A stretch of DNA of 64,000 nucleotides from a bacterium. Lineage in GTDB: Bacteria > Vulcanimicrobiota > Xenobia > Xenobiales > JADMJV01. The stretch spans positions 9,019 to 73,018 of the forward strand of contig JASBRJ010000049.1 of assembly GCA_030149525.1 (NCBI GenBank), in the 5' to 3' direction. Positions within the stretch are counted from its first letter, which is position 1. Each line of letters opens with the position of its first letter. Of the stretch, positions 3,505 through 63,405 are shown in pieces. The notes beneath the pieces were generated by a model, which worked only from the letters and a program-made list of their open reading frames with translations, did not search any database and was not told the origin of the DNA. A program made the translations under genes and the position numbers.

Positions 3505-4013
3505 AAGCCCGTCCGAAGCGCCTGCTCCACCACAACCTCACTCCAGTCTCGGGAAGCAGGCAAAGTGAGAAATAGTTGAGAGCCATGATCGCAAAGAGCG
3601 CTCCGTTCGACTTTTTCCGCGTCGGGACTGAAGAATACTGTCAGCTTGAAGCGGTCCTTGTTCTCTACATTCCTCTGTATCAAGTGGGCAAGTCGTTCGA
3701 GGCCGGCAACGGTGTACTTTCGACTTCGTTTATCGGGGACAAATTGAAAGCCTAAATGCAGCTGGAGCTTGCCTTTCCAGCTTTCCAAAACAGCGTGTCG
3801 GCGACCGGTATGGTAGTCCGACACTCCGCCCTTGTCGCCTGTTTCGCCGGAAGCCGCAAATGCGGTAAGAAGCTCGGCCAGAGCTTTCCGTTCCTCTTTA
3901 TTCAGGGGATCTCGAAAAATTTTTGACCATTGAGGAGAAAGCTTGAGTTCCACCAATCGCTCCAGAGTCTCAGCAGCGACGGCGTAACCCTCTACGCGAA
4001 GTAAGTAGCTCAA
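3501..4013 (-). CDS. Hypothetical protein
   Basis: 170-aa ORF whose stop overlaps the neighbour's stop in CTAG (3501-3504). No recognisable motif; start uncertain. Confidence 0.55.
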   Translation of the reverse strand: MSYLLRVEGYAVAAETLERLVELKLSPQWSKIFRDPLNKEERKALAELLTAFAASGETGDKGGVSDYHTGRRHAVLESWKGKLQLHLGFQFVPDKRSRKYTVAGLERLAHLIQRNVENKDRFKLTVFFSPDAEKVERSALCDHGSQLFLTLPASRDWSEVVVEQALRTGF

Positions 4014-4226
4014 ACTGTTCTGAGCGCCTGCCCCAGAAACGAGAAGCAGTTGTCAAAGGACTATGAATAGAAGGTTTTTTCTCATGCCGGGCCGTTCGCC
4101 GAATCTCGGCTCCAAACATTCTGCGGGCAGCACGGGGATTATACAAAAGTATAAGGGTCAAGAATTCCCCCGGGCGCTTTCCTGCCGTTCGAGAGAGTCT
4201 ACACTTGAGATGATTGGAGAGCGATC

Positions 4227-5207
4227 ATGGAAAACCGCAGCCCGAATTTTTATAAGAAAATCCTAGTGCCTTTAGATGGAACCAGGTTTGCCGAGAGTCT
4301 GATATCACACGCCGTCTCTCTGGCCTCAGCCTTCTCGGCCGATGTGCATCTCCTGCGAGCCGTTCCTTTCCCCTCCTACATCTTCACGCCGCCCGGAGTG
4401 ATCTATGCCGGAGCGATGCCGATCTACCGTCCCGCCGTCATCGAGAATGAGGATGCTTGGGAAGAGGACAAGAAAAGCGCCCAGAGCTATCTTGATACCG
4501 TGGAGGCTAGATTTCGTGAAGAGGGCCTCGGCGTGTCGTCCAACGTGAGATTCGGGGCAGCTCATGAGATTATTCTGGAAGAGGCTCAGGCGCGACACTG
4601 TGACCTTATTCTCGTGGCCAGTCATCAAAGGCAAGGGCTTTCTAGATGGCTCGCACCAAGCACTTCGACCACTCTTTGTCTTCAGGCAAAGTGTCCGGTC
4701 ATGGTGGTGCCGGGAGACGAGAGTGAAGGGCGCTTCGGCGAAAAGCAACTCTTTCAGGAGCTTCACGAACAGGTTCTGTCCCACCTCGAGGAGTTGTCAA
4801 AGGAGACTGAAATCGAGCCCGAGACGCTCAAGAAAGCGATTCCTAGTGCTCTGACGATGATTCTGGCTGCCCTGGCTGAGGAGCGTCGACGCGGCCCCGA
4901 CCTTGTAGAAATACTGACCGAACACGAATCGCCTTCCGACGGTCGACCAGACCTGAAGCTCGTCTCTCTTATCTTCAATCGTCGCGGAGTTCTGGCAACC
5001 GCGAACCTTAAGGAAGAGATTGAAGAACTGGAATCCGATCAGAGCTTAGAGCTCTTAGCACGACTGTCGCCATTCGTCCTGGCATACTTGAGAGCGACAG
5101 CCCACGACGAATCGGACGTGCGAACCTTCATCGACAGGCAGCTCGCCAACTCGCCGGAAACCGTCCGGGAGACGGCCAAGAAGACATCGGAACTCGTTCA
5201 TGTTTGA
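4227..5207 (+). CDS. Universal stress protein (UspA domain) fused to a DUF937-like C-terminal domain
   Basis: YKKILVPLDGTRFAE...CDLILVASHQRQG...CPVMVV is a USP domain. The C-terminal KKAIPSALTMILAAL helical region resembles DUF937/YidB. Confidence 0.8.
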   Translation: MENRSPNFYKKILVPLDGTRFAESLISHAVSLASAFSADVHLLRAVPFPSYIFTPPGVIYAGAMPIYRPAVIENEDAWEEDKKSAQSYLDTVEARFREEGLGVSSNVRFGAAHEIILEEAQARHCDLILVASHQRQGLSRWLAPSTSTTLCLQAKCPVMVVPGDESEGRFGEKQLFQELHEQVLSHLEELSKETEIEPETLKKAIPSALTMILAALAEERRRGPDLVEILTEHESPSDGRPDLKLVSLIFNRRGVLATANLKEEIEELESDQSLELLARLSPFVLAYLRATAHDESDVRTFIDRQLANSPETVRETAKKTSELVHV

Positions 5208-55442: not shown

Positions 55443-56402
55443 ATGAAAAAAGTCGCCGCTCTTTCCGGCCTGTTCGCGCTCTCGGTTCTGTTTCACCCCC
55501 AACCCAGTGAAGGGTGCATCGCCATTCCCGTCCGGCCGGATGACAGCCAACTGGAGATCGCGCTTCCCGAACAACGGGCCTTTCTCTACCGCCAGGGCGA
55601 CACCGAACATATGATTCTTTCCGTTCAGTATAACGGGGCCACAGAAGAGTTTGCCTGGGTCATTCCCACAGAGACGGCGGCCAAGGTCGATGTTCAATCA
55701 GGAGCACCGTTCCACGAGCTCTGGAAAGCCACCAAGCTCAGACCACAGCAAGTCGTGCGAGCCTCACAAGGTGAAGGAGCGGGAGTCAGAGCACCTGCGG
55801 GCGCCGCGGTGGAGGTCATCGAGAGAAAGACGGCCGGACCCTACGATATCGCCGTTCTCAAAGCCAGTTCGGGCGGGGGACTCTACAAATGGCTGAAAGA
55901 CAACGGATTCGGCTTGAACCAGAACACTCGAAACGCCCTCGATGACTACGTTCGTAAGAACTGGTATTTCGTGGCGGCCAGAATCCGCTCCGACAAGACC
56001 TCATCCAGTCGCGAAGCACTCCAGAACGGGACTATTGCTCCCATCCACATAGCCTACAAGGCCAAGAAACTTTCCTACCCTCTCCGTGTCACCCAGGGTA
56101 ACCCTGGAACCTCTGAGATCGAGTTGTTCGTGGTCACCGAGGAGCCGCCTCAACACGCAGGATTGAACGCAACTACATTTCGACTCACCCCGTCCGGCCA
56201 GGGGGAGTTCAAAATCGATGGACCTCCCAATCGAATGTACACTAGCGGAAAGTTTCCCACTCTGAGCAAGCTGATTCCCAAAGGGGGAACTCTCACCAAA
56301 TACAAGGGCCGAATGGGCACCGCTCAACGTCAGCGAGATCTCATCTTCGACTCCGAGGTTACCATGAAGAAACAGGGAGACTGGACGGTTCCCGAGATGT
56401 GA
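55443..56402 (+). CDS. DUF2330 domain secreted protein
   Basis: Signal peptide followed by C; EQRAFL, FAWVIP, GPYDIAVL, WL.DNGF, WYFVAARI, YPLR. Confidence 0.85.
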   Translation: MKKVAALSGLFALSVLFHPQPSEGCIAIPVRPDDSQLEIALPEQRAFLYRQGDTEHMILSVQYNGATEEFAWVIPTETAAKVDVQSGAPFHELWKATKLRPQQVVRASQGEGAGVRAPAGAAVEVIERKTAGPYDIAVLKASSGGGLYKWLKDNGFGLNQNTRNALDDYVRKNWYFVAARIRSDKTSSSREALQNGTIAPIHIAYKAKKLSYPLRVTQGNPGTSEIELFVVTEEPPQHAGLNATTFRLTPSGQGEFKIDGPPNRMYTSGKFPTLSKLIPKGGTLTKYKGRMGTAQRQRDLIFDSEVTMKKQGDWTVPEM

Positions 56403-57963
56403 GGTGGCCTGCCAGTCTTAAGGCCAACGCCGCCACAGTCAAGGTCGGCGGCGCTGTTCCGCTGGTAGGAAAGACATGGCTTCCTACCAGATAGAGATTG
56501 CTATGCTCATGACTCTGAAGATTGCTGTCCACCACCGATGTCCTGGAATCGTGGCCCATTCGAGTGGTCCCCAGGTTGTAGGCGGGGTCGGCGGCCAGAG
56601 AGTGGGTCACAAGCTCTGCTTTGACGGCCTCCAACACTGTCTGGTGGAATCGCCCGGACTCTTCAACCCCACGGCGACTGTAAGGGCCTTCTTCAAAACG
56701 CACCGCCGGCCGTGGTAACCCCGCACTGTCCAACCATTTCCCTGCCAGGACAACACGGTTGGCCGGATGGGGAAGTTGCTCGCAGGTGCTTACCAGAGCC
56801 ACCTGTCGACTCACATGATCGACTACCGCCTCTTTCAGTTTCTTGCCTCGGAGCCCTTGGCGTATAAAGCTCGAAGCCACCTTCTCAGGACCGTACTGAG
56901 GCCATCCGTCGGTGGAAATCGTGGTCAGAAATCCTGCTCGTTCCCTGCGCGAATCTCCACTGCGATACTTCATACAGCCGGAGGTGGCCTGGGGTGCCCT
57001 GTAAGGGTAGACAGCCTTGGGCGACAGCCCCCAACTCAACTGAGCGGAGGCGCCCATAAGGTTTCTGCCCACCTGGTCCGATGAGTTCGAAAGCCCGGAG
57101 CGAAGCAAAAGACAAGCCGACTCCACGGCGTGGGCGGCCACCACGAACAGATTTGCCGAGTCCACGCCGGTCGCGCCATCCCCTGTCAGAAAGTGTAGTC
57201 GCTCGATGTTACCCGAGGGCCCTTTCTCCAGTCGAGTCACCAGAGTGCCGGCTCGAAGAGTCGCTCCTGCAGCAACGGCCATCTCCACATGAACTGAAGC
57301 ATCATATTTAGCTCCGATAGGACAGATGGGAATACAACTGGCGCTGCCACAACAACGAGGCCGTCCCGCGTATGGCACGGAGTTGCGAGCCTGAGGCAAA
57401 TCCACAAAAAGCTCCGAACCTCCGGGAACGGCTTCCTTGAAGAACCGATCCACCAGGGCCGTCTTGATAGCAGGCATGGGATAGTCTTGAGAGCGGGGCG
57501 AACCGAGCTCTCGATTGGAGTCACCGGACACTCCCAATTCTCTCTCAGCTAGACCGTACCAGGGCTCTAGCTCCTCATAGGTTAAGGGCCAATCCACGCC
57601 CACCCCAAATTCTGAACACATTCGAAAGTCCTCGGGCAAAAACCGCAAAGCCGTCCCCAGCCAGTGCCAGGTCGTACCGCCCACAAGCCTCTGGTAGACT
57701 CCCATGAAAAGCTCCGGCCCCTCCTGCCTCAGATGAGACTCCCAGTCGTCGATACGTGGGGCCGGAGCCAGAAGGCTTGGAGGATATGGAGAATCCAACC
57801 CTCGGTCTACGGAGGAACGAAATCTCTCCACGGCACGGGCTCTGTTGACCTGTGGTCCGGCTTCAAAAAGAACCACCTCATATCCGGCCTCCGCCAGTCG
57901 CCAGGCCACAAGAGCGCCGGCCACTCCCGCTCCCACGACAAGAACTTTTATGATGTTCCCCAA
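56359..57963 (-). CDS. GMC-family FAD oxidoreductase (glucose/sorbitol dehydrogenase large subunit-like)
   Basis: VVGAGVAG, VGGTTWHW, CCGSASCIPICP (Fe-S motif), VGRNLM, GTTRMG, PTLTVAALALR. Confidence 0.92.
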   Translation of the reverse strand: MGNIIKVLVVGAGVAGALVAWRLAEAGYEVVLFEAGPQVNRARAVERFRSSVDRGLDSPYPPSLLAPAPRIDDWESHLRQEGPELFMGVYQRLVGGTTWHWLGTALRFLPEDFRMCSEFGVGVDWPLTYEELEPWYGLAERELGVSGDSNRELGSPRSQDYPMPAIKTALVDRFFKEAVPGGSELFVDLPQARNSVPYAGRPRCCGSASCIPICPIGAKYDASVHVEMAVAAGATLRAGTLVTRLEKGPSGNIERLHFLTGDGATGVDSANLFVVAAHAVESACLLLRSGLSNSSDQVGRNLMGASAQLSWGLSPKAVYPYRAPQATSGCMKYRSGDSRRERAGFLTTISTDGWPQYGPEKVASSFIRQGLRGKKLKEAVVDHVSRQVALVSTCEQLPHPANRVVLAGKWLDSAGLPRPAVRFEEGPYSRRGVEESGRFHQTVLEAVKAELVTHSLAADPAYNLGTTRMGHDSRTSVVDSNLQSHEHSNLYLVGSHVFPTSGTAPPTLTVAALALRLAGHLTSREPSSLPVSSW

Positions 57964-58313
57964 TCGTTTCCGCAGTAGCTTGGCGGGCGAGTAAACCGGA
58001 GAGACTCCCAGGCTAAAGAAGTCTTAAAGGCCGTGCGTTCCGAGCCGGTGGTCGTCCCCCGCAGGCCCGTATACCACATCTCGGCGATCCGATTATGCCT
58101 CTCCTCCCTGTCGGCGGGCTCTACATCTTTTAGTGAGGCAAGGTAGCGCTGGGCAAGCTGTCTGTCTAGAGATTCTTTGGGAAATCCCGTAAGCTCGGCC
58201 GAGAGAGTTAAAAAAGACTCGATTTCAGGATCGTTCGGCACGGCTCGGGCCTGAGACAGACAGAATGCAACGGCTGCGAAACCGAGGAGGAGAAAATCAC
58301 GACGTGTGGTCAT
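57948..58313 (-). CDS. Tat-signal small subunit of the GMC dehydrogenase
   Basis: TTRRDFLLLG twin-arginine motif; FLTLSAELTG, WYTG, PPSYC. Confidence 0.85.
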   Translation of the reverse strand: MTTRRDFLLLGFAAVAFCLSQARAVPNDPEIESFLTLSAELTGFPKESLDRQLAQRYLASLKDVEPADREERHNRIAEMWYTGLRGTTTGSERTAFKTSLAWESLRFTRPPSYCGNDWGTS

Positions 58314-59455
58314 AGCATCGGCTTGATGGAGAATGCCTTGATAGGATCAGCGGGGCTTTCAGTGTCCACATCCACTCTCAAATCTACCGACATCCTGTAG
58401 GGCACCCAACGAAAAAACCAGCCTCTATCGAAGTCGTTGGGAATATCACCCGCTGTGGCCACGGGTTCTCCCTCCACTTCCAATGTGCTTCCGGTGACCA
58501 CGATGGTTCTATTGAAGCTGTCGAACTGAACTAGCGTGTCGCCGTACTTGAAAGCGTCCCCCTCCACCTTACCATCCCCTAAAACAAGCTTAGGCACCCC
58601 CACGGCGATCCCGTCTACACTCACAATACTCGGATTGTAAATGAAAGCAGAACCCGGCTTAGAGATGGCGACACCCGAGAGTTCCAACCCCTTAACCAGG
58701 AATTCAAAGGTGACGTCGTCTCGAGTGAATCGGCGCTTCGGGTCCATCTCGAAAGATGAGGTGTAGAAGACATGACTTATCCGCTTGCGCGGGTGACCTG
58801 CCTCTGCCAAAACCTTCCCTTGCTGTGTGAGACTCTGTCCTTGAACTCGCACTATCTGATCAGCCGACACTGTCACGAGAGTCCCCTGGGGAGAGGTATA
58901 GGTCTTACTGGCGGCAGTTAGAAGGTATGGGTAGGGTACCTCCGTCAGTTCACCCAGCTTCGCTCGAGCCTCTTCCAACGACTGTCCCAGGAGAACTCCG
59001 TCGACCTCGCACGCGCCCTTCTGGTAACGGGGAACCGCAGGCACCTCACTCTCTCGAACCGGGTCTCCGAAGCTCCAGAGATAGGAAGCAACAAAAACGC
59101 CAATCGCGAGCGAGATGTAGGCAAGGCACCCAAGGCAACAGCCGCCGTTCTTGAGGCGCAGAGAGGGAAGGAATTGCGCTGTTATGGGCAGACCGAGCGC
59201 TCCTACAGCAAGAAGTGACCCACTTATGGCACTCAACTGAAAAAAACCCACCCAGGCCAGGAACCCGAACAATCCTACAGCCAGCGGACACATGAGCAAA
59301 ATGAGAGCCCAGGACCGTTTGGAGGTGGGCATATCTAAATTCGTGAGTCCGGCTGTCCAACCAAATCCCATTTCGGGGAATCGGTATCCACACGAACAGT
59401 GGAGGGCGTAGACATCATGACTGCGAGTGCACTCGGGGCAAACCTTTTCATCCAT
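58310..59455 (-). CDS. Zn-ribbon membrane-anchored hypothetical protein
   Basis: CPEC...CSCG, three hydrophobic segments and a soluble C-terminus. Confidence 0.7.
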   Translation of the reverse strand: MDEKVCPECTRSHDVYALHCSCGYRFPEMGFGWTAGLTNLDMPTSKRSWALILLMCPLAVGLFGFLAWVGFFQLSAISGSLLAVGALGLPITAQFLPSLRLKNGGCCLGCLAYISLAIGVFVASYLWSFGDPVRESEVPAVPRYQKGACEVDGVLLGQSLEEARAKLGELTEVPYPYLLTAASKTYTSPQGTLVTVSADQIVRVQGQSLTQQGKVLAEAGHPRKRISHVFYTSSFEMDPKRRFTRDDVTFEFLVKGLELSGVAISKPGSAFIYNPSIVSVDGIAVGVPKLVLGDGKVEGDAFKYGDTLVQFDSFNRTIVVTGSTLEVEGEPVATAGDIPNDFDRGWFFRWVPYRMSVDLRVDVDTESPADPIKAFSIKPML

Positions 59456-59555
59456 CCATGATCTTTTCGCCCCTCAAACGAGTTTCCCCACGAAGACTTT
59501 TTGAGGTGCCGACCACCAGGGTGGAAGGCTCCTGTTATCGTACCCTGGTGGAACC

Positions 59556-60677
59556 GTGAGGACATCCTACCAATTGTGGCGCCAAGACGACAATGGCAAC
59601 GAATTTATGATTGAAACCTTTCTCTCCGAGAATGAAGCTGAAGAAGCCAAAAAAGAGTTCGAAGCTAGGGGCCATAAGCAGATGTATTGGGTCCGAGAAA
59701 AATCAGAATCTATCACTAGAGAGCGAGTGAGAGAGGGCCCCCAAGTCTTTCTCGGCGGACGCGATGAAGAAGCCCTCAGTCAACTGGTTTGTGAGGTTAT
59801 CTCCAACTCTATCGACGTCTTCTTGAGAGGGGAAGCCACCGAACTCGCTGTGGAGGTGGAGGGAGCCTGGTTTCGAGTCGTCGACAACGGCACCCACTTC
59901 TCTCGGACCCAGGCCAAAAAGTTTCTCACCACCTATCATCAGACGGCTGCCACCGATGCTCATAACCCGCACATTCGTATAGGCCAGGCTGGGGTTGGCC
60001 TTTTCCCGGTCAATTGTTGCTGCTCGCGTTTCGAGATCGAGAGTGAAGACGACGAGGGCGGGTGGCGACTCGTCTTTCGAGAGGGGATTCTGGAGTCGGA
60101 AGAGAGCATCGAACCGCCTGATCAGACCACCGTGACCGGTGTGGCCGACACCAAGCTCTTTGAGGCCTATGAGATCCCCGAATACCGACTCCGTCGTCTG
60201 CTCTTCGAGGGCGTTCATCTCTTTCCGGGTCTAAGTGTCACCTTCCAGGAAGAAAAATTCTATTCCGAAAACGGTCTTTCCGACTTAGCCGCCTTCGAAG
60301 CACAGTCCGACCTCACGTCTCTCAACCGTGATCTTTCCAAGAGACACTTCGGCTACAGCTACGCCGACGAGCATCTAAGTTTCACCTTCGCCTGCCGCGG
60401 TTCTGCAAGAGAAGAGACTCGCTTCATATCCTGGGTAAACGGTGGCTTGACCGGCATGGGCGGAAGCCATGTCGAAGGAGTCAAAGATGCGATCTACGGC
60501 TTGGAGTGGAAGCCTGCGGTCGCTTTGATCCATGTGGTTATGAGGGAACCTCTGTTCTGTGGCCCTGTCAAAGACGCCCTCAGCGTCCCTGGTCTTCAAG
60601 AAACGGTCCGGGACGCGCTCCTGGAACCGATTCAAGATTATATTTTGGAACAAGAAGACTCTGACTTGAAGGTTTGA
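59556..60677 (+). CDS. Small N-terminal domain fused to a GyrB/ParE ATPase-transducer fragment (no TOPRIM)
   Basis: EVISNSID, VVDNG, GQAGVGLFPVN, SWVNG..T..GGSH, PLFCGPVK. The protein ends after the transducer domain. Confidence 0.8.
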   Translation: MRTSYQLWRQDDNGNEFMIETFLSENEAEEAKKEFEARGHKQMYWVREKSESITRERVREGPQVFLGGRDEEALSQLVCEVISNSIDVFLRGEATELAVEVEGAWFRVVDNGTHFSRTQAKKFLTTYHQTAATDAHNPHIRIGQAGVGLFPVNCCCSRFEIESEDDEGGWRLVFREGILESEESIEPPDQTTVTGVADTKLFEAYEIPEYRLRRLLFEGVHLFPGLSVTFQEEKFYSENGLSDLAAFEAQSDLTSLNRDLSKRHFGYSYADEHLSFTFACRGSAREETRFISWVNGGLTGMGGSHVEGVKDAIYGLEWKPAVALIHVVMREPLFCGPVKDALSVPGLQETVRDALLEPIQDYILEQEDSDLKV

Positions 60678-60703: not shown

Positions 60704-61588
60704 ATGAGAAACGACAAGACTATTGAGTTTCAAGGCCCTCGAGAAACGGATTCCGGGGACGGCCCTTCCGTCCTATGCCTCATGGTTTTGTCCGGGCCGG
60801 AGCAGGGGGCTGTCTATCAACTGGAAGAGGGTGAGATCATCGCCGGTCGCTCTCAGGAAGCCAAAATGCTCTTCTCTGAAGCCGGCGTAAGTCGCAAACA
60901 CGCTCGCTTCACCCTCAGCAACGGAGCTGTCACGGTGGAGGATCTCGGATCCACCAACGGCACCTTCGTCAACGGAACCAAAATCGTATCAGCCCAAGTC
61001 CAACCCGGCGACACCCTTGGGTTGGGCGGTCGTACCAGCATCCGTCTAAGCCTCATGGAAGAAAAAATGAGTCAGATCTTCGCGGAACTATATCGCGAAG
61101 CCGCCCTGGACCCGTCGGGTGTTCTCAACCTAAAAACTCTGAAACCGCGCCTGAAAGCCAGTCCGGATCATTCACTGGCCGTTGTAGAGATCGATCAGAG
61201 TGAACAGACTCGAGACCGGTTTGGTCATTCCACCGAGGAAGAGTTGGCCACCCATATCGCGAGTATTCTCAAAAACGACCTGGCCGACAAGGCCGTGGTG
61301 GGGCGACTGAGCGGCGAGAGCTTCCTGCTGAATCTTGAGTGTCGCGCCCTGGATACGGTGGATGTGCTGGACAGGGTTCGTCGAGCCATTGAGTTCAATC
61401 ATTTTCGTATCGATACGGCCAACGGCCCCGAATTCATCCGTATCACCATCAGTTGCGGAATCGCTGCCTTCGTTGAAAAAGAAGAGTACGAGGAGACCCT
61501 CAAGGCCGCCGAGGACGCACTCATGATGGCCAAGCAAATGGGTCGGAATCGAGTCCACCTCAGTGAACGACGAAAATTCGGACGGTAG
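60704..61588 (+). CDS. FHA + degenerate GGDEF domain protein
   Basis: IIAGRS, VSRKHA, DLGSTNGTFVNG (FHA); GRLSGESF in place of GG(D/E)EF; AKQMGRNRV. Confidence 0.85.
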   Translation: MRNDKTIEFQGPRETDSGDGPSVLCLMVLSGPEQGAVYQLEEGEIIAGRSQEAKMLFSEAGVSRKHARFTLSNGAVTVEDLGSTNGTFVNGTKIVSAQVQPGDTLGLGGRTSIRLSLMEEKMSQIFAELYREAALDPSGVLNLKTLKPRLKASPDHSLAVVEIDQSEQTRDRFGHSTEEELATHIASILKNDLADKAVVGRLSGESFLLNLECRALDTVDVLDRVRRAIEFNHFRIDTANGPEFIRITISCGIAAFVEKEEYEETLKAAEDALMMAKQMGRNRVHLSERRKFGR

Positions 61589-62186
61589 AAGTCGCTGCTG
61601 GTGGTGCTCCCAGTCTGAAGACTACCGAAATTACCACGATACCGAGTGGGGCTACCCTGTTACCGACGATCGGCGCCTCTTTGAAAAAATCTGTTTGGAA
61701 GGTTTTCAATCCGGACTCTCCTGGCTCACCATCCTCAGAAAGAGAGAGAACTTCCGAAAAGCTTTCTGTGATTTCGATTTTCATAAGGTAGCCCGGTTCG
61801 ACCAAGAAGACGTAGAGCGTCTGGTCCTCGACGCTGGGATAGTAAGGCACCGCAAAAAGATCGAGTCCACCATCAATAACGCTCAGCGGGCCCTGGAACT
61901 GCAGAAAGAGTTCGGCAGCCTGAGCAAATTTTTCTGGCAATTTGAACCCCCTGCCCGTGAGCGACCCGAAAAGGTTTCCAAATCTAGCATTCCCGCTCAA
62001 ACCCCAACTTCCAAGCGTCTGAGCCAGGAACTCAAAAAACGAGGCTGGAGCTTCGTGGGTCCTACCACGGCTTACGCCTTCATGCAAGCCATGGGATTGG
62101 TCAACGATCATGTGGAGGAGTGTTGCATCAGAATTCCGTGCATAGACGCTCGAAGTCGTCTTGCAGCTGAAACTCCCGGCGCTTAA
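61563..62186 (+). CDS. tag: DNA-3-methyladenine glycosylase I
   Basis: RCWW, YHDTEWG, LEGFQSGLSW, IVRHRKKI, FVGPTT, GLVNDH. Confidence 0.96.
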   Translation: MNDENSDGRSRCWWCSQSEDYRNYHDTEWGYPVTDDRRLFEKICLEGFQSGLSWLTILRKRENFRKAFCDFDFHKVARFDQEDVERLVLDAGIVRHRKKIESTINNAQRALELQKEFGSLSKFFWQFEPPARERPEKVSKSSIPAQTPTSKRLSQELKKRGWSFVGPTTAYAFMQAMGLVNDHVEECCIRIPCIDARSRLAAETPGA

Positions 62187-63405
62187 GACGCAATTTATCG
62201 GAGGCGTACTGAGCAGCCGCCACCCCGGCAAGACCCAGGAAAAGCGGATTGACCAGACTTAACCCCGTAAAGGTAAGCAAAGCCACCTTTTGAGGTGTCC
62301 CCTTCATCCCCAGGGTCAATCTCCTTCCCGTATCCTTGTCGGCCAAGGCAAAAAGTTTCTCCCGAATTCTTGCCCGAGCGTGCCGCTTCCGCTCTTCGTA
62401 TAGATTGCTGAGAGACAGATTCAAGCCGCTGAGATCTGTTCGTAAGCCCTCGGCACTGATAAGGAGAGTCAACCCGATAGAACCTCGAGACTCCAATTTC
62501 TCGGCACGGATAATGACGCCGTCTTTCACCCACTTGAGGTAGCTGGGCTGAGCGCAAAAGCCGGGCGACTCCACGGTCTCCTGGACGTTAGCGGTGAAGC
62601 AAGCCAGAGCTCCGCAAACCATGGCCTCGCCGAACACTGTCATCAACTCCCCGTCCAGGCGAGCCGACAACTCATCCTTCTCAGGCCTCCAATCCCGGTC
62701 TCTCAAGAAACGAAACTCTGGAAGATGAAGGGTCGGGTTCACCGGCAAAAGAGCGACGGGTGCAGTGTGAGAGGTGGCACCCCCGTTAGGATCGTTGGAA
62801 AAGCCGTTGATGGGGCGGCCGTCCAGAGTGATGGGAATGGGACAGGGATAAGCCAGGTTGCTCAACACTTTTCCGATCATGGCCGAGTCGATGAGACCGG
62901 AAGCCCCCAACGACCAGAAACTCCCGGACTTCCTGGCCGAGAACACTGTCAGTTCGAAACAGTCCACCGGGTAAGGAGAGGTCTCCGAATGAAAAGCCTC
63001 CCCGTCCCAAACCTGGGTGGTGCCGTCCGGATAGCGCAAAGCGAGAAGCTTATCGGCACTCCTGGCCAGGTATCGAACAGCTGCCGCCAGCGGCACCAGG
63101 GCCATATCTTGAGCCGAATCGGCCGAAAAAAGCGCGGCTGTTACCAGATCTTGCGTCCATCGCGATTGGCCCACGAAACGAAACGAACTCTCACTACCGG
63201 TGAGTTTGACCTGGAGAGACTCGCAGGCCGCCAGTACCGCAGCCTGAACAAGCTTGAGGACCCAGGCGTGCTCGAAAGGAAGTTGATAGGTGCTGAGCTT
63301 CTCCCAGGCTTTATCCCTATCTAACGTAAAGCGCCCTTCGGACTCCCAGGTGCCCTGATTGGCCAGGTTTTCGACCCATTGATAAATTTTAGACTGTTTG
63401 TGCAA
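62128..63405 (-). CDS. Hypothetical protein with a degenerate GHKL-like N-terminal region
   Basis: GRFTLDRDKA..KLSTYQL..WVLKLVQAAV (ELVQNA-like); C-terminal hydrophobic segment. Confidence 0.65.
   Translation of the reverse strand: MHKQSKIYQWVENLANQGTWESEGRFTLDRDKAWEKLSTYQLPFEHAWVLKLVQAAVLAACESLQVKLTGSESSFRFVGQSRWTQDLVTAALFSADSAQDMALVPLAAAVRYLARSADKLLALRYPDGTTQVWDGEAFHSETSPYPVDCFELTVFSARKSGSFWSLGASGLIDSAMIGKVLSNLAYPCPIPITLDGRPINGFSNDPNGGATSHTAPVALLPVNPTLHLPEFRFLRDRDWRPEKDELSARLDGELMTVFGEAMVCGALACFTANVQETVESPGFCAQPSYLKWVKDGVIIRAEKLESRGSIGLTLLISAEGLRTDLSGLNLSLSNLYEERKRHARARIREKLFALADKDTGRRLTLGMKGTPQKVALLTFTGLSLVNPLFLGLAGVAAAQYASDKLRLKRREFQLQDDFERLCTEF

Follow-up and report, generated by a model that had tools for sequence, protein, structure and literature searches.

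The gene at positions 59556 to 60677 of the window (the whole 64,000-nucleotide stretch of DNA that was analysed) encodes a GyrB/ParE-type GHKL ATPase domain and a transducer domain and nothing of the DNA-cleavage half, and it is a member of a separate family that has no annotation so far, with a GHKL and transducer core of about 310-370 aa, for which no database model was found. The GyrB ATPase module is among the best-studied molecular switches and is a major antibiotic and toxin target. This family has freed that module from DNA cleavage and has remodelled the very lid loop by which drugs and toxins recognise it, yet it keeps the catalytic residues, and it could show to what other uses the module can be put and how much change the lid tolerates. 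The reading that we favour, tentatively and with slightly less than even confidence, is that the product is a homodimeric switch or clamp operated by nucleotide, which would work by binding and not by strand passage; this was among the roles proposed in the initial annotation, as a repurposed ATP-dependent clamp.

A GHKL ATPase and transducer without TOPRIM

The ORF has a GTG start and codes for 373 aa, and the protein consists, in this order, of an N-terminal module of about 48 aa, the GHKL domain and the transducer. The features of the gene and of its immediate surroundings are as follows.

59556..60677, + strand: whole gene (ORF, Pfam/NCBIfam, AF2 model, dN/dS)
59556..59705, + strand: N-terminal module, aa 1-50 (secondary structure from the AF2 model, conservation, free-standing forms, fusions)
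59712..60275, + strand: GHKL (Bergerat-fold) ATP-binding domain, aa 53-240 (Pfam/NCBIfam, Foldseek, superposition, hhalign)
59793..59816, + strand: N box with E80 (general base), N84 (Mg2+ ligand) and D87 (family conservation; aligns to YEVVDNSVD of the GyrB of the same genome)
59883..59900, + strand: G1 box D110-N-G112-T-H114-F, with His in place of the second Gly of DxGxG
59937..59999, + strand: remodelled ATP lid, aa 128-148, H128..D134-A-H136-N-P138-H139-I-R141...G146-V-G148 (column counts; alignment to own GyrB)
60276..60674, + strand: transducer, aa 241-373, with SWVNG..T..GGSH (292-305) and a QTK-like loop EPLFCGPVK339 (Pfam, family alignment, superposition, hhalign)
59513..59551, + strand: 10-bp inverted repeat CCACCAGGGT ... 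ACCCTGGTGG, which ends 4 nt before the GTG and covers an SD-like GGTGGA
60704..61588, + strand: gene for an FHA domain and a degenerate GGDEF domain (SGESF), 26 nt past the stop

In Pfam the protein matched HATPase_c with 24.7 bits and DNA_gyraseB with 25.1 bits, and in NCBIfam it stayed below the cut-offs of three models, with 56 bits for the gyrB model TIGR01059 (cut-off 882) and 43 and 42 bits for the parE models TIGR01055/8 (cut-offs 723 and 900); in the TIGR01059 match residues 56-313 align to GyrB 13-286. The similarity to GHKL and transducer domains is genuine, though far under the family cut-offs. No Pfam match to Toprim or DNA_gyraseB_C was found in the protein, which ends at residue 373 with the stop at 60675-60677, and the next gene is the FHA-GGDEF gene. 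The AF2 model (pLDDT 93.6, pTM 0.87), which superseded an earlier one from a 6-sequence alignment with a pLDDT of 65.8, superposes on the 43-kDa fragments of ParE and GyrB with a Z of 30.6 and an rmsd of 2.5 A over 294 residues, and the Foldseek E value for these fragments was 8e-29. In the fold ranking the ParE fragment and the Myxococcus GyrB 3CWV, with a Z of 28.1, stood above Topo VI-B, MutL, Hsp90 and MORC, and when the family profile was aligned to the N-terminus of the GyrB of the same genome the hhalign probability was 100% (E 4.7e-45). The ORF, the domain matches and the fold match bear out the initial annotation of a stand-alone GyrB ATPase fragment without TOPRIM as a real gene. The motifs that it named are also there: E80, N84 and D87 of the N box, D110-N-G112, the Gly-rich lid hinge GxxGxG of the G2 box as G143-Q-A-G146-V-G148, and K339 in GPVK. 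The DxGxG consensus of the G1 box is not kept, and DNGTHF stands in its place as had been noted; at position 114 Gly is found in 97 of 104 aligned family sequences and His in just 2.

The closest known counterparts are the 43-kDa fragments of GyrB and ParE (4URL, 1S16, 3ZKB, 1EI1), which share the GHKL and transducer fold (Z 30.6 and 29.6, TM about 0.7), the N box, the adenine-binding Asp, the Gly-rich loop, the GGSH motif and the transducer Lys at 19-23% identity. These fragments, however, are laboratory constructs, whereas the window protein is a natural full-length gene product, and it differs from them in that it lacks the second Gly of DxGxG, that a folded module replaces the N-terminal arm, that its predicted dimer uses another surface, and that its lid has H136-x-P-H139-x-(H/R)141 and no equivalents of K103, Y109 and K110. 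A natural TOPRIM-less GyrB-like protein of 369 aa is 3CWV of Myxococcus xanthus ('DNA gyrase, B subunit, truncated'), which superposes on the AF2 model with an rmsd of 2.7 A over 272 residues and 25% identity but is without the N-terminal module. With the clade profile A1 it scored 62 bits compared to about 127 bits for true GyrBs, and because of this lower score it is probably a separate offshoot; no functional study of this structural-genomics entry was found. The N-terminal domain of MutL, MORC and Topo VI-B have the same domain pair and are ATP-driven switches without a cleavage domain of their own, but at Z 12-20 they are far more remote from the window protein than GyrB/ParE, and their C-terminal dimerisation, endonuclease and coiled-coil parts are missing here. 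A 'GyrB paralog' of Tuwongella is a full-length enzyme and has no bearing on this protein.

As judged by comparison with its relatives, the gene is intact and evolves under purifying selection. The dN/dS relative to an ortholog of 86% identity (L005) was 0.077 for the whole gene and 0.108, 0.088 and 0.059 for the module, the GHKL domain and the transducer, respectively; the neighbouring genes gave similar values. The reading frame is unbroken and of the same length in relatives of 98%, 86%, 52% and 41% identity. A truncated, decaying leftover of a gyrB duplication would be in keeping with the four near-invariant family positions that are altered in this copy, but the constraint over all three domains, the unbroken frame and the same short architecture in 138 of the best 150 family matches stand against it, and as far as sequence can refute such a reading it is already refuted, which leaves it scarcely credible.

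The genome carries gyrB and gyrA on one contig (C6) and a second B and A pair on another (C284), both complete, so that the full-length gyrB which had been set as a check does exist elsewhere, and the window gene is a third, separate gene. There are just two A subunits in the genome, each adjoining a full-length B, and none lies within the window, in agreement with the earlier remark that no gyrA or parC is nearby. With two complete pairs elsewhere, and with neither an orphan GyrB tail nor a further A subunit in the genome, the product is not a topoisomerase subunit. Topo VI (fold match Z 19.8) offers a case of separate B and A proteins, and the gene could on that model supply the ATPase part of a type II topoisomerase or nuclease that is split between genes, with the TOPRIM or cleavage partner encoded elsewhere, but this is very improbable given the lack of such a partner in the genome and of any conserved neighbour across 14 loci, where the neighbourhoods were heterogeneous. 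An all-against-all BLASTP of the ORFs from 11 loci likewise gave no shared neighbour, and a Pfam search with ten flanking proteins turned up unrelated families (VIT-VWA-TPR, ABC transporter, histidine kinase, aminotransferase IV, YchJ). In the window the gene lies among genes for a membrane zinc-ribbon protein, a GMC oxidoreductase, the FHA-GGDEF protein and a Tag glycosylase. The FHA-GGDEF gene is possibly co-transcribed with the window gene; this adjacency is limited to close relatives and is missing beside more distant homologs. The upstream inverted repeat folds into a hairpin of -28.1 kcal/mol (z -2.08) that is conserved only in part in the 86% ortholog, where it shows one wobble, one mismatch and no compensatory change, and it could possibly be a regulatory element, though on weak evidence, and we do not claim it as one. 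A promoter scan, which is uninformative for this organism, gave no sigma-70-like site.

The family and its ATP lid

A profile search over 1.84 billion representatives gave 326 matches at E<=1e-30. The 150 best matches span E values from 1e-143 to 3e-41; 138 of them are 224-387 aa long, and the remaining 12 are longer and bear other extensions; TOPRIM was absent by Pfam in ten long members. A continuation of the homologs into TOPRIM, which had been named as a refutation, is thus not what is found. With the family profile (A2) the window gene scored 352 bits compared to about 200-235 bits for the best true GyrBs in 401 genomes. The catalytic Glu, the Mg-binding Asn, the adenine-binding Asp, the Gly loops and the transducer Lys/Arg are kept across the family; among the 104 aligned sequences the counts were 101 for E80, 103 each for N84, D87, G112 and H305, 100 for D110, 96 for G146, 104 for G148 and 88 for Lys or Arg at 339. 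The ATP lid, in contrast to these, has been rebuilt at the length of the GyrB lid, with LHAGGKF..YK replaced by a His-rich H..DGHxPHxH (H128 .. D134-G-H136-A-P138-H139-V-H141), in which Pro at 138 is found in 103 and His at 141 in 99 of the 104. The window copy retains H128, D134, H136, P138 and H139 of this motif and has Arg at 141, and it deviates at four conserved positions in all (R61G, G114H, H141R, R165D). Because the lid is without equivalents of GyrB Lys103, Tyr109 and Lys110, the ligand could be other than ATP, and because three near-invariant residues are missing besides the second Gly of DxGxG, the window copy may not hydrolyse ATP.

The family is rare and patchy in its distribution, with members in 5 of 401 genomes of one phylum and in 2 of 401 of another, and copies within a genus are just 40-43% identical and lie at different genomic places. 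Three top members and a copy in a same-family genome have an N-terminal SUKH-1 (SMI1_KNR4) domain, one of them together with HEAT repeats, and the genome of the window gene carries a degenerate, catalytically dead paralog. SUKH-1 is typical of polymorphic-toxin immunity proteins. All of these observations would be consistent with a decoy, sponge or immunity protein, that is, a TOPRIM-less GyrB look-alike that captures toxins or antibiotics directed against the GyrB/ParE ATPase and thereby shields the genuine enzymes, as would the location of some members in variable regions, one near Zeta toxin, Macro and antitoxin genes (L084) and one near a TPS exoprotein (L085), which is at most suggestive. 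Interbacterial toxins that attack this ATPase domain do exist (PMC12136450, PMC7479194). What weakens this idea is that none of the lid residues on which FicT, Cpe1 and the aminocoumarins act has been retained: the Cpe1 site LHAGGKF is H-x-T/S-P/A-T/S-A-D in the family, without GG, and YHQTAAT in the window copy; Pro138 stands where FicT would find Tyr109; and Arg136, which contacts aminocoumarins, corresponds to Asp165 in the window copy. Moreover, a passive decoy would not require a general base, an Mg ligand or a transducer Lys/Arg, all of which the family keeps. Beside the window gene there are no toxin, secretion or biosynthetic genes, PADLOC gave no match for the protein, and an immunity-protein layout, directly downstream of a toxin or in an immunity array, was absent at the window, with no conserved toxin neighbour at the other loci. 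A review on proteins that inhibit gyrase includes no GyrB-like decoy. The decoy or sponge put forward in the initial annotation therefore loses ground, and we regard it as unlikely. A pattern scan of viral contigs showed no relative, and literature searches on truncated GyrB, GyrB-like proteins, SUKH with GHKL and the module motif brought up nothing about the family or the module.

The predicted homodimer

When the window protein was modelled as a homodimer the ipSAE was 0.80 compared to 0.00 for the best control; known homodimers reached this mark in 20 of 30 cases and single chains in 1 of 23, in a calibration that was run without ligands and without user-supplied alignments. In three runs at least 94% of the contacts were common and the partner pLDDT was at least 85. 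The predicted interface is formed by residues 210-258 and 289-301, and since it lies away from the N-terminal arm and the lid, the prediction is not mere recall of the GyrB 43-kDa dimers. The interface is less conserved than the remaining protein, with a mean column entropy of 3.09 vs 2.33.

This bears on whether the protein could regulate the gyrase or topo IV of its own cell by pairing with the ATPase gate of full-length GyrB/ParE in a mixed dimer, or by binding it in another way, and thereby modulate supercoiling. The nearest relatives in sequence and fold are GyrB/ParE ATPase regions, the GyrB-like arm motif Y....I..L is kept in most family members, and the two type IIA enzymes of the genome are possible targets. 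The predicted self-interface, however, differs from the ATP gate, the module replaces the arm in the window copy, and the family is absent from about 99% of the sampled genomes, all of which have GyrB, so that it is not a general gyrase regulator. We consider this reading quite unlikely, and the modulator that binds GyrA, as earlier suggested, is also unlikely, as the TOPRIM and tail that contact GyrA are absent.

A self-contained homodimeric switch or clamp run by nucleotide is, in our tentative view, the better explanation. ATP would bind in the Bergerat pocket and be sensed by Lys339 of the transducer, which would lead to a conformational or oligomeric change, and the output would be the binding or release of a partner. 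The window copy, changed at its four positions and still strongly constrained, may bind nucleotide with little turnover.

The N-terminal module

The module, of about 45 aa with the pattern W-R-Q-D-D-N-G-N ... A-R-G-H-K-Q-x-Y-W, is predicted to be strand-strand-helix-strand, and R9, D11 D12 N13 G14 N15, H40 K41 Q42 and Y44 W45 are invariant. It recurs at 50-60% identity in Actinomycetota, Planctomycetota and Polyangia, and 91 clusters of proteins of 43-88 aa consist of it as a free-standing unit, as the initial annotation had stated for the first 48 aa or so. The fusion proves to be neither unique nor central to the gene; the GHKL and transducer core forms a family in its own right, in which the module is present in only 6 of 104 aligned members. 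Elsewhere the module is fused to NUDIX, glyoxalase, LigT-like, PdxK-like and K+/H+ antiporter proteins, and in Kitasatospora a free-standing module gene lies 10 nt upstream of a NUDIX gene, which mirrors the NUDIX fusion (P0283).

Three copies of the module matched no Pfam family at E<=10, SPOR included, and searches of NCBIfam and of PDB sequences gave no match; the best PDB hit by sequence, a tailspike protein at E 0.018, is at chance level, and a structural match to part of Sulfolobus topo III (Z 5.9) is too low to trust, the whole-model search barely probing residues 1-46. SPOR domain is the name that NCBI gives to some of the free-standing Kitasatospora copies. Both are small strand/helix units, and by eye the 'hydrophobic strand - s..eA......l...G....v' pattern resembles half a SPOR repeat, but the module is roughly half the size of SPOR, and the protein that bears it here appears to be cytoplasmic.

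The spacing from Y44 to V58-R59 is that of the arm tyrosine in the GyrB of the same genome, and the module may be a portable adaptor grafted where the N-terminal arm of GyrB sits. Because it is attached to, or encoded beside, other enzymes that handle nucleotides and small molecules, it probably gives a surface for binding a ligand or partner. The joint reading, that these are TOPRIM-less GyrB descendants with a His-rich lid, possibly for a metal or an alternative ligand, which act as autonomous ATP-operated clamps or switches, a gyrase-derived bacterial counterpart of the MORC- and MutL-type GHKL machines, and which share a portable sensor or adaptor of about 45 aa with nucleotide-handling enzymes (NUDIX, GHKL, 2H phosphoesterase, kinase), is doubtful as a whole. 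The module is a separate lead in its own right, being very small, very conserved and widespread without a database entry, and as it is found time and again together with NUDIX and other enzymes that handle nucleotides, its function can be tested directly.

The window gene and the topoisomerase genes of its genome

The GTG-initiated ORF at 59556-60677 (+) gives a 373-aa protein in which all the motifs named in the initial annotation were found. With Pfam this protein gave only sub-threshold matches, to HATPase_c (residues 70-157) and DNA_gyraseB (residues 274-313), and positions 13-286 of the NCBIfam gyrB model aligned to residues 56-313 with 56 bits against a cut-off of 882. Neither Pfam nor NCBIfam showed a TOPRIM domain or a GyrB tail in the protein, and the gene that comes next, 26 nt after the stop codon, encodes FHA and degenerate GGDEF domains; the window gene is thus a GyrB-type ATPase without TOPRIM, as had been proposed. 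Its surroundings are as follows.

56359-59455, minus: three tightly packed genes diverging from the window gene
59513-59551, +: perfect 10-bp inverted repeat, ending 4 nt before the GTG and spanning an SD-like GGTGGA
60704-61588, +: FHA + GGDEF gene, GGDEF signature reading SGESF
61563-62186, +: Tag-type methyladenine glycosylase gene, sharing 26 nt with the 3' end of the FHA-GGDEF gene
62128-63405, minus: conserved 425-aa protein without family assignment, overlapping the glycosylase 3' end on the opposite strand

When the window gene was compared with its 86%-identical ortholog, which lies in the same synteny on marine metagenome contigs (L005), dN/dS was 0.077 (N-terminal module 0.108, GHKL 0.088, transducer 0.059), and the neighbouring genes were in the same range. 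The FHA-GGDEF protein is 96.6% identical in this relative with a dN/dS of 0.024, and given its SGESF signature it is probably not an active cyclase. Of the diverging genes, one encodes a GMC-family FAD oxidoreductase of 534 aa and one a small FAD-SLDH-like subunit of 121 aa; the product of the third, the fastest evolving gene of the region (dN/dS 0.155), has 381 aa, hydrophobic segments and, at its N-terminus, a zinc-ribbon-like motif. The inverted repeat has a fold z of -2.08; only part of it persists in the ortholog, where no compensatory change is seen. Length and architecture of the window protein are the same in relatives at 98, 86, 52 and 41% identity, and by these comparisons it is the product of a real gene. 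The 425-aa protein recurs in a genome of the same genus (G052), at a distance of 3 kb from the GHKL gene. Public taxonomy gives the label 'Phycisphaerales bacterium' to a 98%-identical protein and the labels 'Selenomonadaceae bacterium' and 'Vulcanimicrobiota bacterium' to the close-relative contigs L011/L012; the three labels conflict, and two or more of them must be wrong.

On contig C6 the genome (8.27 Mb, 97% complete) carries gyrB (988 bits) adjoining gyrA, and on contig C284 another B subunit gene (722 bits) adjoining another A subunit gene, so that the full gyrB expected elsewhere is present, in two complete B and A pairs. The GyrB C-terminal tail model matched only these two full-length genes in the genome and there was no orphan GyrB tail. 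Since no orphan cleavage half was found, there is nothing for the window protein to pair with, and it is evidently not part of a topoisomerase. That it is the ATPase part of a split topoisomerase is therefore very improbable and essentially excluded, each A subunit lying beside a full-length B.

Extent and distribution of the family

A search of 1.84 billion representative proteins with a profile built from the six closest sequences yielded 326 matches at E<=1e-30. Among the best 150 matches (E 1e-143 to 3e-41), 138 are 224-387 aa long and the remaining 12 are longer, most of them aligning at their own C-terminal end. TOPRIM was found by Pfam in none of ten long members; three have an N-terminal SUKH-1/SMI1_KNR4 domain, one of them with HEAT repeats and one with a zinc ribbon, and the others have extensions without Pfam assignment. 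The homologs thus do not continue into TOPRIM, as they would around a truncated gene, and a pseudogene is hardly credible and essentially excluded by these lengths and by the dN/dS of 0.077. With a profile of the 104-sequence family alignment the window gene scored 352 bits and the best true GyrB in 401 genomes 200-235 bits, and because of this difference the family is cleanly separable from GyrB/ParE. Pfam and NCBIfam have no model for it, and we found no publication or database model for either the family or the N-terminal module. By these searches the family is sizeable and unannotated. ATPases of the GHKL + transducer kind are well known; the autonomous, His-lid, module-bearing variant is new.

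Of 401 species genomes from the window's phylum, at least 5 contain the family (the window's, three congeneric ones and one more from the same taxonomic family), as do at least 2 of 401 from the phylum of a Pirellulaceae MAG (L014), both counts being lower bounds because up to five candidates were scored per genome. None of the conclusions depends on those sampled genomes that are flagged as unpublished. The same-genus copies share only 40-43% identity with the window protein and their neighbourhoods differ, one copy being near an integrase-like gene. Across 14 loci no conserved neighbour was common, and the 86% relative alone retains the FHA-GGDEF gene. Such a picture is that of a rare, mobile accessory gene working alone. 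A regulator of gyrase acting through a mixed dimer, to which we give little credence, is hard to reconcile with about 99% of the sampled genomes lacking the family. In the same-genus genome G060 a 95-aa ORF (L083:7700-7987, minus) matches the family at its C-terminal end alone (..VMKEPEYAGPT..) and seems to be what is left of a second copy; it is 1.4 kb from the full-length copy, with one 406-aa ORF without assignment between them. The window's genome also has a 419-aa paralog from this TOPRIM-less family on contig C194 (L004:1135-2394, minus; hhalign probability 97.5%, E 5e-12) which has the motifs RHRPELFI, LFPGL, GGVH and AGP in common with the family. Its N box, G1 box and lid are lost, which makes it a catalytically dead sibling.

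Conserved residues, the ATP lid and the predicted dimer

The near-invariant positions of the family are those that equip a type IIA ATPase for catalysis.

Conserved residues in the 104-sequence family alignment (window protein numbering)
R59: 97/104, framework
R61: 95/104, framework
P62: 96/104, framework
E80: 101/104, general base
N84: 103/104, Mg ligand
D87: 103/104, N box
D110: 100/104, adenine contact
G112: 103/104, G1 box
G114: 97/104, G1 box
G146: 96/104, Gly loop
G148: 104/104, Gly loop
N295, G296: 102/104, 103/104, transducer
G303, H305: 103/104, 103/104, transducer
K or R339: 88/104, QTK lysine position

When the family was aligned with the genome's own GyrB (hhalign probability 100%), the ATP lid was equal in length and different in chemistry.

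The ATP lid in the hhalign alignment (E. coli GyrB numbering after PMC12136450)
GyrB L-H-A-G-G-K-F: family x-H128-x-T/S-P/A-T/S-A; window Y-H-Q-T-A-A-T
GyrB Tyr109: family Pro138 (103/104); window Pro138
GyrB Lys110: family His139 (101/104); window His139

H136 (95/104) and H141 (99/104) complete an H-x-P-H-x-H motif. The window copy differs from the family in having G61 for R, H114 for G and R141 for H; G61 and R141 are common to it and the 98% relative, the 86% ortholog keeping R and H, and H114 is common to all three. The window copy is an atypical member; under strong selection nonetheless, it is functional, and it may handle nucleotide differently. Position 165, that of the aminocoumarin contact Arg136 in GyrB, is Arg in 63/104 sequences and Asp in the window copy. 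Tyr109 of GyrB is the target of FicT. The Cpe1 site on GyrB is LHAGGKF (PMC12136450). A decoy or sponge for agents directed at the GyrB ATPase would suit the SUKH fusions, the patchy distribution and the island-like context of some members, but we consider it unlikely, since all the lid sites of the known agents (LHAGGKF, Tyr109, Arg136) are replaced and a passive decoy has no need of the conserved catalytic set.

The AF2 model made with the 104-sequence alignment (pLDDT 93.6, pTM 0.87) had ParE/GyrB 43-kDa fragments as its best structural matches (Z 30.6, rmsd 2.5 A over 294 residues, and Z 29.6), followed by 3CWV, a natural truncated Myxococcus GyrB (28.1), phage and eukaryotic topo II (23-24), Topo VI-B (about 20), MutL (16-19), Hsp90 (about 15) and MORC (11-13). 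With the six-sequence profile 3CWV scored below true GyrBs (62 vs about 127 bits), and it would be a precedent rather than a family member. Two copies predicted with ATP + Mg gave an ipSAE of 0.80, the best control giving 0.00; among proteins of solved structure, 20 of 30 homodimers and 1 of 23 single chains attain that mark. Contact agreement between runs was >=94% and pLDDT >=85. The confident contacts are at residues 71-72, 210-217, 227-236 (strand pairing at 233/234), 243-258, 289-301 and 340, and include neither the N-terminal module nor the lid. The arm and the lid region make the hallmark contacts of the GyrB43 dimer, so the predicted surface is a different one and no mere copy of that known dimer. 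Conservation is lower in the interface columns than in the rest of the protein (entropy 3.09 vs 2.33). The prediction supports self-binding of the window protein, short of showing it. The explanation we favour, though tentatively, is that the protein would be a homodimeric switch or clamp operated by nucleotide, its output being binding and not strand passage, with the N-terminal module as a portable adaptor. The analysis shows the fold, the conservation of the catalytic residues, the selection and the independence from topoisomerase genes; dependence on ATP, dimerisation and the role as adaptor are putative.

The N-terminal module

The first ~48 aa, described in the initial annotation as a free-standing protein of other bacteria, do occur as such in 91 clusters of 43-88 aa, with hosts that include Kitasatospora, Gemmata, Fimbriiglobus and Cryptosporangium; some Kitasatospora copies carry the NCBI name 'SPOR domain-containing'. 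No match to the module was found in Pfam (E<=10), NCBIfam or PDB sequences. In the AF2 model it has strands at 3-10, 16-22 and 43-50 and a helix at 25-37, and R9, D11, D12, N13, G14, N15, H40, K41, Q42, Y44 and W45 are invariant across 58 copies. Among the 104 aligned family members only 6 have it; the fusion is not unique, and it marks one clade. In the fusion it occupies the place of the GyrB N-terminal arm, and Y44 is 14 residues ahead of V58-R59, the same distance that separates the arm Tyr from V-R in the GyrB of this genome; we infer that it substitutes for the arm.

Other proteins bear the module at their N or C terminus, among them K+/H+ antiporters, glyoxalases, a NUDIX hydrolase, a LigT-like 2H phosphoesterase and a PdxK-like kinase; many further partners have no family assignment. 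In Kitasatospora (L090) a free-standing module gene (4001-4165) precedes a NUDIX (MutT-like) gene (4175-4621) by 10 nt, an arrangement that mirrors the module-NUDIX fusion protein P0283, and this Rosetta-stone pair could reveal the function of the module. In Fimbriiglobus ruber (L091:1862-4192) a free-standing module gene follows McrBC and HNH genes with a transposase alongside, a restriction or mobile-element context.
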